64,000 nt of DNA, from contig OX597831.1 in NCBI GenBank assembly GCA_951406725.2, positions 43,648,001 to 43,712,000 of the forward strand. Reading direction: 5' to 3'. The notes beneath the pieces are model-generated. The model was not told where the DNA came from and did not search any database. It saw only the letters and a program-made list of their open reading frames with translations. Below, piece by piece: positions 7,965 to 59,424 of this stretch. The position numbers were made by a program, and so were the translations under genes. Every line of letters begins with the position of its first letter. The first letter of the stretch is position 1. This DNA comes from Octopus vulgaris. Its lineage: Eukaryota.

Positions 7965-8400
7965 GTTAATCCAAACAAGAAAACAAAAACAAAAAAACAA
8001 CAATGCAAGGACGTGGAACAAATAAAGTAGTATTGGACGCTCAGGAAAGAAGGGAAGAAGGAGGGTTTGACGTTTTGAGCAGAGCTCTTCGTCGGAAACA
8101 TAAGAGAAGGAAAGATCCCGAGAAGGGAAGACAGGGGAAAAAAATCGCTAGTGATAGCTGCAAAATTATCACAGAACTGTTAGAGTTACATGTTCCTGTT
8201 TGTTGGACATTTGTGATGAATATTGAATTAAAATCAATTTTAATTCAATATTCATCACAAATGTCTGACGAATGGTAACATGAATCTTTGAGTAACAGTT
8301 TTTGAGAATTTTGCAGCTTCCATAAAAGCATATTACTCTGTATTTGGTATTCAAGTACTATTTTTTTTCCGTCAGGTTTTGCATTTACATGCTTACTTGT
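7965..8400. mobile_element. Penelope-like terminal-repeat fragments with degenerate hammerhead motifs and a fold-back
   Basis: HHR-like motif on - at 8065-8099 and on + at 8254-8300; perfect 29-bp inverted repeat 8206-8234/8237-8265; abuts (TA)n. Confidence 0.6.
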
Positions 8401-9266
8401 ATGTGTGTTCGTGTACATACATACTTTTCTATGTCATTCAACATTCAAATTTGATTTGCCAACTTTTATTCTTTATGTTGTGTCTGGGGAGAGTCACACT
8501 CACTGGTAAAATTTCCACTTCTTTCTTATTTTTATTTTCCTAAAATTTTCGTTGTGTCTTCCAACCTTTTCAATAGTTTTGACTGTCCGTTATTTACACT
8601 GCGTTCCTTTTTGTTTGTTTGTGCGCATGTGTGTGGGTCAGTGTGTGTGTGTGTGTGCCTATGCATGTATGTATTTATGTATGTATGTATGTATGTATGC
8701 ATGTCTATGTATGCATATGTATGTATGTGTGTACATCTGTATGTATGTATTCTGAATATTCATGTGCTTGCATATCTGTGCATGTATGTGTGTATATATA
8801 CATACATACATACATACATACATACATACATACATACATACATACATACATACATACATACATACATAGATACATATATATAGATAGATAGATATCACTT
8901 AAAAGACAAAAATGGTTCTGTGTTCTTTAGTGTAGACACATTAATAGGTTTTGTGTCCAAAGGGTGAAACATACAATCCTATTTCAGAAAAGGAAAAGAT
9001 TTGTAGACAAGAATTGATCATGAAGTTCTTGTTGTCTGGCCCTAGGTTAACCTTGATTGAATAAACCCGTAATGAAAAATGCTCTAATGGTAACCTTTCT
9101 GGGAAGCTCCCTTTGAAACCTCATGGTTTTGGGTTCAGTTCCACTGTTCAGTACCTTGGGCAAGTGCCCTCTGCTAAAGCTCCAGGCCAACCAATTCCTT
9201 GTGAATGAATTTGGAGGACAGAAACTGTGAGGAAGCCTGTCATGTGTGTGTATGTGTGCATATATG

Positions 9267-9909
9267 TATGAGGGGTTGCTGAAAAGTTCCTGGCTTTAAG
9301 GATATCGTGAAAGGTCTGGTTGGAGTCTCAACCTTGTGAGTTCTTTTACAGGGATTAGTAAAACTGAAGGACCATTGCAATAAGTGTGTGAATCTGAGAG
9401 GGGAATATACTCTTACTCTTTACTCTTTTACTTGTTTCAGTCATTTGACTGCGGCCATGCTGGAGCACTGCCTTTAGTTGAGCAAATCAACCCCGGGACT
9501 TATTCTTTGTAAGCCCAGTACTTATTCTATCGGTCTCTTTTGCCGAACCGCTAAGTGACGGGGATGTAAACACACCAGCATCGGTTGTCAAGCAATGCTA
9601 GGGGGACAAACACAGACATGCAAACATATACACACACACACACACATATATATATACATATATACGACGGGCCTCTTTCAGTTTCTGTCTACCAAATCCA
9701 CTCACAAGGCATTGGTCGGCTTGAGGCTATAGTAGAAGACACTTGCCCAAGATGCTATGCAGTGGGACTGAACCCGGAACCATGTGGTTGGTAAGCAAGG
9801 TACTTACCACACAGCCACTCCTGCGCCTATGTTCAACAAAATCATAATTAATTGATCCTTCTGCAATTTCTTTTACCCAAAGCTAGGAACTTTTCAGCAC
9901 CCCCTCATA
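9267..9909 (+). mobile_element. Tc1/mariner-derived MITE interrupted by a family A SINE
   Basis: ~30-bp imperfect TIRs tatgaggggttgctgaaaagttcctggcttt / aaagctaggaacttttcagcaccccctcata with TA ends; internal remnant tgcaataagtgtgtgaatctgagaggggaatat (CNKCVNLRGEY) resembles the mariner transposase C-terminus (W.KC....G.Y). Confidence 0.75.
9410..9827 (-). mobile_element. tRNA-derived SINE family A, full length
   Basis: Head ggcgcaggagtggctgtgtggtaag (A box) and gggttcagtccc (B-box-like), CORE-like cttgggcaagtgtctt, internal microsatellite, (agagtaaa)n tail. Confidence 0.85.
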
Positions 9910-12900
9910 TATATACATACATGCATACATACATACATACATACATATATATATATGTAGGTGGCACGTAAAAAGCACCCACTACACTCCCGGAGTGGTT
10001 GGCGTTAGGAAGGGCATCCAGCTGTAGAAACACTGCCAGATCAGACTGGAGCCTGGTGCAGCCCCTGGCTTCCCAGACCCCGGTCGAACCGTCTAACCCA
10101 TGCTAGCGCGGAAAACGGACGTTAAACGATGATGATGATGATGATATATATATGAGTGTGTGTGTGTCACACTGCTATTGCTTGTCAACTGGTGTTGGTA
10201 TGTTTATGTCCCTATAACTTAGTGGAAACAGATAAGAATTGGTAATAGGCAGAGCATACAGCTGAAGAAAATCTGCTCAATAAGTTCTTCATTTGATTCC
10301 TGTGAGCATGGTAAAGTGGATGTTAAAACATTGATGGTGATGGTGGTTGTGATGACGGAGGTGGTGATGATGATGATGATGATGGTGGTGGTGGTGGTGA
10401 TGATGATGATGATGAGGGTGATGATGATGGTGGTGGTGGTGGTGGTAGTGATGAAGATGAGGGTGATGATGATGATGATGATAATGATAGTAGAAGTGAT
10501 GATGGTGGTGGTGTTGATGATGGTGGGTGGTGATGGAGCTGATGATGATGAGGGTGATTATGATGATGATGATAATGATAGTGGTAGTGTTGATGATGGT
10601 GGTGGTAGATCTGATGATGATGATGATGATGATGATGATGACGACGATGATGAGAATGATGGTGAGGACGATGATAATGATGATGATTATGGTGGTGGTA
10701 TGAAACTAAAACCCCTTTATACCCCATGAATCAGCTTAGCATTGAATTCGGCATAGAAAACCCATCTATGGACACTGAACCTCTTCATTGGGTAAATTAA
10801 AATAATAACAAAAAAAAGTAAAATAACAAATATAGAAAATAAAATAAAAATCATGAAGCCCCCCTTTCATAGGCATTGCAATGTTGTTAGGCAAGCTACG
10901 TTATATTATTATATTATCAAGAAAATAAACTGTACTATTGATTTAATAAAAATCTAAGCACCAATTTTATATATGGGGGGGGTGGGGCTCATAATCAGTT
11001 GAGTCAAACCTTGCATATTCCTAGTGCTAAGCTCATCAATACGAGAGGGATTAGAAGTAAAAGGCAGCTCTTGTGGGATTTGAACTCAGAATGGGTTCAA
11101 GTGATTACAAAACTAAATATTCTAAATGCATTTTGATGACTTTCTATCTCTTTTTTTCTTTTCTTCTTTTTGCCAACTCGTCACCTTTAATGTAAATAGT
11201 AATATCACTTATCTGATATTAGAAGGATATTAGCATGCCAATCAAGGACAAAGCATCTGTGCTGAGTAAACACCTGTGCAAATATCTAAATAGCAGAGCA
11301 GATAGAAGATAGAAGAATTATAATCAAAGATCTATGTGCAAAAGTGAGTGTGTGTGTGTGTGTGCGTATGTGTAAAAGTGTGTGTGTGCGTATGTGTAAA
11401 AGTGTGTGTGTGCGTATGTGTAAAAGTGTGTGTGTACATTTGATTGTGTACATGATGTTTTATCTAATTGCTTTAAATTGGCATCCCATTTAGCAAACAT
11501 CTGTATTGATACACTGTATTTATAACAAACTGTGTGACTCTGACAGCAGTTTTTCTGTCAGTCTTTTGCTAATGATCTGCATGTTTAGTTAGTATGTTAG
11601 CAACCATCCGATTAAATTCAGTTCTGCTTGTCCATCATGTCAAATGCTGACCTCGGCTTTAGTGGTGTTGGTGGGGTTATATGTCCTACAGTAAAGATTC
11701 ACATTCATTGACAGAATCTTATCAAACTTGACCCTTTAACATATTAATCTTGGCAAATCTAGCCGCCTTACAGACAGTACTGTATATTCCATCGGGCCAT
11801 TTCCCAGCCTTGTTGACACATTCATTATCTTTGGTGGAAGGAAAACTCCATTGTAAATCACACAGGAAATTAAGTTATTCTTAGTTTGTTCCTCCAATCA
11901 TTTCTCTCTATGAACACTGCAACATATCTAGCATCCTTAGTATTATGGAGAATAAAGGTTTATAAAGTAACATTTCAGACCAGACCCATGTGAAATATTC
12001 AACTGTATGTTGTTGTTGTTTAGCTCAAGGTTAGCTTCCATTGAGTAAACCTATAACCAAGGACTTTCTAGTCGTAACCAAATTCTTTATATATATATAT
12101 ATATATATATATATATATATATATGTGTGTGTGTGTGTGTGTGTGTATCCAATTTCCAGTGCACTGTGATCTGTGAGGGGATTTGGTATACAGAAACTGA
12201 AAGGAACCTGCCATATATATATATATATACATATATAGCACTTGTCAACATTTCAAGTCTCTATATATATATATATATGTGTGTGTGTGTGTGTGTGTGT
12301 GTGTGTGTATATATACACACATCTATCTAACTATATATATATATATATATACACACACACACACACACATCTATATATATGCATACATACATAAATACAT
12401 ACATACACACACACACACATATACATATATATATCATCATCATCATCGTCGTTTAACGTCCGTTCTCCATATGATAGATAGATAGATAAATATAGATAGA
12501 CAGATCAACAGATAGACAGACAGACTAACAGATAGACAGATGGACAGACAGACAAACAGATAGATATGTATATATGTGTGCATTAGTGTGTTCATGGGTG
12601 TTTATGTGTTGGTGTCTCTGTGTCTTGATATTGCTCAATAGTTGTAAACGATCATTACCAACATACAAGTGATATCCTTTGTTTCCAATCCTCCATGGAT
12701 GCATGTCTGGTCATGGGGAAATGCTATCTCTTGCTCGGAAATAGGTGAGGACCGGTGACAAGAAGGGCACAGTACCATAGAAAATCTGTCTCAACAAATT
12801 CCATCTGACCCAAGCAAACATGGAAAAGTGGACGTTAAAATACTGATGATGATGATGATGATGATGATGATGATGATGATGATGGTGAATATACCTCAGA

Positions 12901-59064: not shown

Positions 59065-59158
59065 TTCTCCCCTGAAGATGGAAGCAGTGTTATCTGATAA
59101 TAGAGCCTAGTAACTATTATTATTCCAGACCACTAAGCCCACAGAAACAGCTGTTGGA
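59065..59158 (+). ncRNA. Hammerhead-like motif with long stem II
   Basis: CTGAAGA (59072-59078), nested stem TGG/CCA, AGTG/CACT, CTG/CAG, ATAATAG/CTATTAT, then GAAAC-AGCT-GTT; stem I is weak (2 bp). Confidence 0.4.
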
Positions 59159-59384
59159 CTCATAAATCTGTACCCTTTTAACTCCTGATAACATTTATAT
59201 TCTGCATTTTGGATAATTTTATATCCATACACATGTACATTTTTTTCTATTTAATCTATTTAATATTCTGGGCAAACTGACCTGCCTAACTTACTTCTCG
59301 TTATATTTATTCATATATATATGTTCTCGACTCCAAACAGAAGATAAACTGATTTTACTTCAAATCTTTATAAATTTTTTTACT

Positions 59385-59424
59385 GATATTTGATAAGATG
59401 AGATACATTGAAACCGGTAATATT
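59385..59424 (+). ncRNA. Minimal type I hammerhead, U3:A8 variant
   Basis: GATAT-TTGATAA-GATG-agata-CATT-GAAAC-cg-GTA-ATATT; palindromic stem III ACCGGT. Confidence 0.45.

Follow-up and report, generated by a model that had tools for sequence, protein, structure and literature searches.

Nine families of short repeats with minimal type I hammerhead motifs in an Octopus vulgaris locus, likely truncated ends of Penelope-like elements

We analysed a 64-kb window of the Octopus vulgaris genome (GCA_951406725.2, contig OX597831.1, positions 43,648,001 to 43,712,000 of the forward strand; coordinates below count from its first letter). The whole window is non-coding, with a GC content of 36.6%. It abounds in microsatellites, namely (TA)n, (CA)n and triplet ones, as well as in repeats resembling short interspersed elements (SINEs). 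Scattered through it are short repeats that carry a minimal type I hammerhead ribozyme (min-HHR) motif. A first-pass annotation of the sequence had noted 11 such sites, and all of them exist at or near where it placed them. Its list lacked a twelfth motif (8573, minus strand; U3:A8, stem III AAUU) and two further inverted partner copies (8206, minus strand; 18669, plus strand). Self-comparison of the window, with the site at 8573 included, sorts the sites into nine families, A to I. These mostly decayed repeats are probably truncated 3' ends of Penelope-like retrotransposons, that is, pieces of their pseudo-long terminal repeats (pseudo-LTRs), and their source RNAs would have cut themselves only as dimers. 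The copies are as follows, each motif being identified by the coordinate of core position 3.

8065..8099, minus strand: family A motif (position 3 at 8095); core C3 C4 G5 A6 C7 G8 A9, extra A, 4-bp stem II, G12 changed to A in the window copy, stem III ACGU, 4-bp stem I. The repeat spans ~7966-8148 and its 3' end adjoins (TA)n.
8156..8222, minus strand: inverted, more decayed copy of family B; its core, with position 3 at 8206, reads CCAACAA, and it forms the left arm of the palindrome 8156-8318.
8256..8304, plus strand: family B motif; core CUGACGA at 8265, A15.1 changed to U, near-palindromic stem III. It lies in the right arm of the same palindrome, followed by a tail to ~8395 that is absent from the left arm.
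8540..8576, minus strand: family I motif (position 3 at 8573); intact core U3 U4 G5 A6 A7 A8 A9, extra G, stem II of 4 bp (5 bp in most copies), stem III AAUU, 3-bp stem I. The repeat spans about 8495-8620.
16012..16047, minus strand: heavily decayed family C motif (position 3 at 16043); core CUGUAGA (U6), GAGA replacing GAAA. The repeat, 201 bp at 15919-16119, has (TA)n on both sides.
17717..17790, plus strand: family D motif; core CUGAAGA at 17728, G12 changed to A, stem III ACUCGGAGU, long stem I, irregular stem II. The repeat stops at an (AT)n array at 17970.
18590..18644, minus strand: intact family E motif (position 3 at 18635); core G3 U4 G5 A6 A7 C8 A9, extra G, 5-bp stem II, stem III AAUAUU, 9-bp stem I, fold z -3.19. 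It lies in the left arm of the palindrome 18512-18777, with a one-sided tail at 18452-18511.
18662..18777, plus strand: inverted partner in family E; G3:C8 core at 18669, with a 15-nt deletion that takes the 3' strand of stem I.
19257..19290, minus strand: second, decayed family C copy (position 3 at 19287); core CUGUUGA (U6). The repeat, 19170-19344, has TA runs on both sides.
39372..39425, plus strand: intact solo copy of family B; core CUGAUGA at 39383, 3-bp stem II, stem III ACUCUGAGU, 5-bp stem I and a further helix, within a TA/TG microsatellite.
54774..54824, minus strand: intact family E motif with a G3:C8 core at 54817, in the left arm of the palindrome 54690-54953. This insertion has (TA)n on its left and a one-sided tail, 54954-55012, on its right.
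54841..55012, plus strand: inverted partner in family E, truncated inside stem II and bearing the tail.
55928..55973, plus strand: family F motif; core CUGAAGA at 55933, 6-bp stem II, G12 changed to A, stem III ACGU, 5-bp stem I, adjoining (TAA)n.
59070..59157, plus strand: family G, uncertain; full core CUGAAGA at 59072, 8-nt palindrome ACAGCUGU, a gap of 65 nt between core and palindrome, no clear stem II, 2-bp stem I.
59385..59424, plus strand: intact family H motif; core U3 U4 G5 A6 U7 A8 A9 at 59390, extra G, 4-bp stem II, stem III ACCGGU, 5-bp stem I, in a repeat of ~240 bp between TA runs.

The anatomy of the insertions points to their origin. Three of them are palindromes with 3' ends outward (8156-8318, 18512-18777 and 54690-54953). 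Both family E palindromes carry an identical 60-bp tail on one arm and none on the other, and in the family B palindrome the right arm continues beyond the left arm's stop (extent 8156-8395). Penelope-like insertions are described as 5'-truncated, often with an inverted copy, with a one-sided tail of 30-40 bp and with a bias towards microsatellites (bioRxiv 2021.04.23.441226). Inverted pairs with a one-sided tail match this published pattern and therefore argue for a Penelope-like origin. The first-pass annotation had also proposed that the motifs favour (TA)n neighbourhoods, and they do. A run of (TA)5 or longer lies within 150 nt of 7 of the 11 noted cores, compared with 12% of 3000 positions drawn at random outside microsatellites (binomial P ~8e-5, the sites not being fully independent).

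The condition of the 11 noted sites is mixed: 5 have the full core, and 4 have the full core together with stems I and II. Positions 3 and 8 are complementary in all 11 (8 C:G, 2 G:C, 1 U:A), just as claimed, although these sites make up only eight families, among which G:C and U:A each arose once. The claim that every site follows the order NUGANNA to GAAA was too broad. NUGANNA is absent from three (CCGACGA at 8095, CUGUAGA at 16043, CUGUUGA at 19287), so that three non-standard cores had been taken as standard, and GAAA is absent from five (AAAA at 8095, 17728 and 55933; GAAU at 8265; GAGA at 16043). Similarly, a palindromic or near-palindromic stem III can be read directly as ACGU, AAUU, AAUAUU, ACCGGU, ACAGCUGU or ACUCnGAGU, but it is decayed at 16043, 19287 and 8265. 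Stems I and II, the extra base and G10.1-C11.1 are present in families A, E, F, H (C11.1 is U in H) and I; the extra base after A9 occurs together with G10.1-C11.1 in A, E, F and I. Family B lacks the extra base, D is irregular and G fails.

We compared the window with eight dinucleotide shuffles of itself, made in 500-nt blocks. A strict type I descriptor (complementary 3:8, U4 G5 A6, A9, GAAA, palindromic stem III, UH and a stem I of at least 4 bp) gave four matches in the window (18635, minus; 39383, plus; 54817, minus; 59390, plus) and none in any of the eight shuffles. A variant with a 3-bp stem I gave six matches, against one over all eight shuffles together. In a relaxed, scored scan, six matches scored at least 10 (one of them, at 37497, is a microsatellite artefact), and 120 of 133 shuffles had none at this level, the maximum being two. 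At a score of at least 4 the window has 20 matches, inside the shuffle range of 5-22, and 16043, 17728 and 19287 are absent from these 20. Intact copies are thus far above chance. For decayed copies the descriptor by itself shows no excess over chance, since the relaxed count lies inside the shuffle range, and other evidence is needed. For 8095 and 8265 this is homology together with contigs mapped to the window, for 16043 and 19287 homology to each other, and for 17728 its own long stem I and palindrome. The family G site, 59072, has a relaxed score of 7.4, inside the shuffle range, and a fold z of 0.16; it is probably a chance match. An extra base after A9 together with G10.1-C11.1 (in A, E, F and I), a palindromic stem III and U-rich 5' flanks agree with the published min-HHR consensus, and chance would not call for them. 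Weak descriptor matches at 2556 (minus), 35732 (plus), 26771 (plus) and 37483-37497 (minus) were rejected as chance or microsatellite. An Rfam scan gave no hammerhead family among the 150 of 439 matches listed, only microsatellite look-alikes.

Other copies of families A, B and I were available as contigs of four public runs (three species labels), which were mapped to 7966-8620 at 80% likeness. In run X1, 14,249 contigs mapped to these 655 bases. Summed contig depth, which is a sign of great abundance only and gives no copy number, was 1.6-3.8 million for family A and 1.0-2.7 million for family I, where one contig has ~50; over most of the family B right arm it was 12,000-23,000. In these runs family I matches family A in abundance, and it turns up under each of the three species labels. 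(That run X12 is RNA is no more than a guess, and its depth was not taken as expression.) Shares were computed for 29 of 40 listed letter changes, single-contig changes included, the weakest listed share being 20%; nine further changes lay beyond the list. The majority letters, which are unlinked positions and not linked pairs, repair the motif where the window copy is broken, and this argues that the motifs in A, B and I are real. In family A, G12 is restored in 87-98% of mapped contig depth. In family B, GAAA is restored in 94-98%. In family I, stem II regains a fifth pair through the combined changes at 8555 (86-95%) and 8561 (98-100%). Three families, A, B and I, are multicopy, and families A, B, E and I are above chance. 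Families A, B and I lie end to end within 655 bases (7966-8620), an arrangement that suggests insertion beside earlier copies; in addition, the stretch 8437-8462 resembles sequence from the downstream part of family E.

Family A, which is very abundant, has C4 in the normally fixed core and keeps it while G12 is restored. At its position 4 (8094) no change was among those listed in the four runs, which puts U4 at no more than about one fifth of the depth per run. Contig mapping is biased towards the letter in the window, but at 13 and 18 bases from 8094 the contigs outvoted it. Run X14, under another species label, keeps C4 too; its family A depth is 183,000 at 8076-8097, compared with ~7,000 at 8010-8053 and 13,000 at 8098-8119. 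Depth in this run is confined to the motif, and the motif therefore outlasts its flanks. Family C has U6 in both of its copies, which were counted in the window only. These copies (175-201 bp) are 75% alike, with TA runs on both sides and different start points. Families A and C have a common layout and common downstream sequence, and their non-standard cores differ. Because the invariant U4 is changed in A and the invariant A6 in C, the two are hammerhead-derived variants and not standard members. In family B, 42-58% of depth has C where the window has U4, and C4 is also present in the inverted arm. C4-G5 being a CpG, decay of a C4 source may have produced the standard-looking cores at 8265 and 39383. 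C4 accompanies C7 in family A and in the likely source of both family B arms. Common damage elsewhere takes the form of G12 to A (8095, 17728, 55933) or C11.1 to U (16043, 19287). It would fit CpG decay at C11.1-G12, the source G being demonstrated for family A only.

What these cores would do can be predicted from published mutants. Family E (G3:C8 in three of three copies, with all 15 stem II cells paired) is predicted to cut like a standard min-HHR, and slower cutting is predicted for families A, B and C, because mutagenesis of CUGA spares only the G3:C8 swap and because of data on U4C and A6C. Pairwise mutagenesis of a type III hammerhead gave low activity for all CUGA changes except this swap (PMC9901934). 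U4C in a viroid has much lower activity in vitro while infectivity is kept, and A6C in a phage hammerhead is slow in Mg2+ and rescued by Mn2+ (PMC3088659; PMC7151607; PMC9901934). A6U was not found in the covered part of the literature on hammerhead core variants. For the altered cores, either weak cutting suffices, or a dimer contact compensates, or the fold is a protein handle in short non-autonomous elements. We suggest tentatively, as a possibility on the doubtful side, that some of the most amplified Penelope-derived repeats spread with a core already changed at U4 or A6 in the source element. Such a core could be a working alternative (C4 with C7; U6 with U7) or a non-cutting recognition signal for an element protein in short non-autonomous elements.

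In the Penelope-like reading, an element-encoded reverse transcriptase (RT) with a GIY-YIG endonuclease would have copied the ends into (TA)n. The element RNA would have been released from tandem source transcripts when two of their motifs paired through the stem III palindrome. Solo and inverted copies would be unable to cut in cis and would thus have decayed, typically at the C11.1-G12 CpG. Families A (C4), probably B (C4) and C (U6) would have spread with a core predicted to cut slower still, and their cutting would likely be weak, helped by protein or metal, or dispensable. The published min-HHRs fit this scheme. They lie in the terminal repeats of Penelope-like elements, mostly as single motifs of truncated elements, with some pairs 100-700 bp apart on opposite strands. 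They cleave weakly, and to do so need either to form dimers or to have an extended stem III (PMC4209133).

Several results weigh against this reading. Motif architecture and the inverted copies with tails support the first-pass view of Penelope-type minimal hammerheads near (TA)n, but no linked Penelope protein was found: 0 of the window's 137 open reading frames (ORFs; stop-free, non-repetitive, at least 58 aa) matched RT or GIY-YIG in Pfam, a check that is insensitive to shorter or frameshifted remnants. One ORF had a weak DNA-ligase match, below its cut-off, which was rejected. The absence of an RT or GIY-YIG frame in the window is as expected for short truncated ends. The window likewise contains no direct partial tandem of the pseudo-LTR kind, which source elements alone would require. 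Stem covariation, tested on the three copies of family E only, was not above shuffles (91% of cells paired; 172 of 500), and the changes among these copies are one-sided, resembling CpG decay. Families D, F, G and H are each represented once in the window, outside the region to which contigs were mapped. Computed dimers form an intermolecular stem III in two of seven folded copies (39383 and 59390), and the other five pair otherwise. Finally, the tails here are ~60 bp, longer than the published 30-40 bp (bioRxiv 2021.04.23.441226).

Closest to the window families are the Penelope-like min-HHRs of Cervera and De la Pena 2014 (PMC4209133). Both have the type I order, an absent or tiny palindromic stem III, a short stem I, an extra base after A9, G10.1-C11.1 and a U3:A8 variant. 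Both occur as many families per genome, mostly as solo copies with some opposite-strand pairs, and with predicted weak, dimer-only cleavage. Among the 56 published representatives, which include no cephalopod in the supplement as covered, the 3:8 pair is C:G in 53, U:A in two and U:G in one, and U4-G5-A6 is found in all, fixed by the descriptor used. G3:C8, C4 and U6 do not occur among these 56, but the search fixed those bases. The window differs in having one family with G3:C8, two with C4 and one with U6. Natural core variants (Perreault 2011, PMC3088659; PMC7151607; PMC9901934) are rare single ribozymes with tertiary contacts, whereas in family A C4 predominates, in a minimal fold and in a repeat amplified on a massive scale.

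Penelope minimal, dimer-type hammerheads and U3:A8 cores were thus known already, from publications of 2011-2014. Family-level core variants (C4, U6, G3:C8) are probably undescribed. In the literature covered we found no description of such cores in Penelope repeats, nor of cephalopod min-HHRs, the likeliest place for one (Lunse 2017) lying outside that coverage. According to citations in PMC6765202 and PMC10085705, Lunse, Weinberg and Breaker reportedly dealt there (RNA Biol 14:1499) with small dimer-cleaving Penelope hammerheads with diminished stem III. For giant squid, 235 Rfam hammerhead matches have been counted, and the papers covered do not describe motifs like these. A pattern scan of metagenomes for the layout of families A and C returned three loci, none usable. 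Two of them (L001 and L002, both at 1501-1529, minus strand) are copies of one repeat. They have GAAACGU and a stem II like that of a hammerhead, but their core reads G4/U6 and a clear stem I is missing. The third lies in GC-rich surroundings and looks like chance.

What the window adds is an abundant family A that keeps C4 with G12 restored, a family B with about half C4, a family C with U6 and a family E with G3:C8. Despite its C4, family A retains its fold, its palindrome and the two catalytic guanines, and it shares a genome with standard, U3:A8 and G3:C8 families. Together these make a natural series for asking if spread depends on cutting. What hammerheads do in Penelope-like elements is described as unclear, with one whole clade lacking them (bioRxiv 2021.04.23.441226). 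An alternative core or a non-cutting signal, if true, would bear on what these hammerheads are for. The first-pass annotation correctly expected variant cores to be missed by searches for CUGANGA only, a point already published for U3:A8 (PMC4209133, PMC3088659). Searches that fix CUGA miss the most abundant families, and CpG decay can make a C4 core look standard.

Among the alternatives, one that we regard as a serious though lesser prospect is that families A, C and I are dedicated elements in their own right, short, non-autonomous and SINE-like, which derive from Penelope ends. They would have their own source copies, with the fold kept as a handle for a helper protein and cutting relaxed. 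It overlaps the truncated-end reading in origin. The huge depth of families A and I in run X1 relative to one contig (no copy number) speaks for it, as do the family C copies of 175-201 bp between TA runs and the layout and downstream sequence common to A and C beside their unlike, non-standard cores. So does the fact that the motif, C4 included, is the part of family A common to the species labels. Loose contig ends, however, show other family A copies continuing upstream of the window copy, and the two family C copies differ in their start, as 5' truncation predicts. Where the first-pass annotation proposed non-autonomous families, 5'-truncated ends of full elements would fit equally well.

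It is unlikely that the repeats are non-LTR retrozymes, meaning tandem hammerhead units expressed as small circular RNAs, and the label "retrozyme-like" given at first pass found no support. The repeats are non-coding, AT-rich and of 150-400 nt, and animal retrozymes are likewise short non-coding type I hammerhead repeats related to Penelope ends (PMC7229834; 10.64898/2026.07.22.740005). The 2026 preprint (10.64898/2026.07.22.740005) derives them from such ends and reports dispersed monomers. However, retrozymes form tandem arrays with canonical type I motifs (PMC7229834), the kind that has loop 1-loop 2 contacts, and yield circular RNAs, whereas the window has solo or inverted minimal motifs. 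No motif lies inside a tandem array among the 150 of 152 arrays listed for the window, and no head-to-tail, direct tandem pair of motifs was found in it, paired copies being inverted. Three two-copy tandem duplications (25191-25555, 184 bp; 31577-31950, 200 bp; 48099-48305, 105 bp) carry no hammerhead motif.

We consider it quite improbable that the palindromic families B and E are miniature inverted-repeat DNA transposons at TA, with an incidental likeness to hammerheads. Their fold-backs of 160-265 bp are near-perfect, one beside (TA)n, and an unrelated fold-back palindrome of ~230 bp with no convincing hammerhead, itself possibly a miniature DNA transposon, lies in a TA run at 35700-35934. 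Centres vary between copies, though, and the tail is on one arm. A solo arm of family B exists as well (39367-39446), and in family E the motif amounts to a complete hammerhead whose 3:8 pair is compensated in three of three copies. Chance matches in AT-rich, microsatellite-rich DNA are hardly credible as a general explanation: the relaxed count of 20 falls inside the shuffle range, and 59072, 2556 (minus) and 35732 (plus) are probably of this kind, but the strict count and the repair by mapped contigs stand against it, and it is already refuted for families A, B, E and I.

Some minor features of the window complete the picture. A fragment of the family C pyrimidine-rich leader lies at 18130-18185 (plus strand) and ends just before the hammerhead core. 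An AT-rich 100-bp palindrome (18776-18878) adjoins the right end of a family E insertion. Pyrimidine tracts stand beside several motifs (17790-17969, plus; 8100-8150, minus; 16048-16085, minus), and TTTACAG follows the family D motif. Because Penelope terminal repeats hold an intron end near the hammerhead, the tracts and TTTACAG may be splice signals. The inverted repeats 9117/9789 and 36408/36681 were set aside as opposite, motif-free copies of common SINE-like repeats. A 156-aa open frame at 28605-29072 (minus strand) has no Pfam match; we take it to resemble the C-terminal end of a long interspersed element (LINE) protein.

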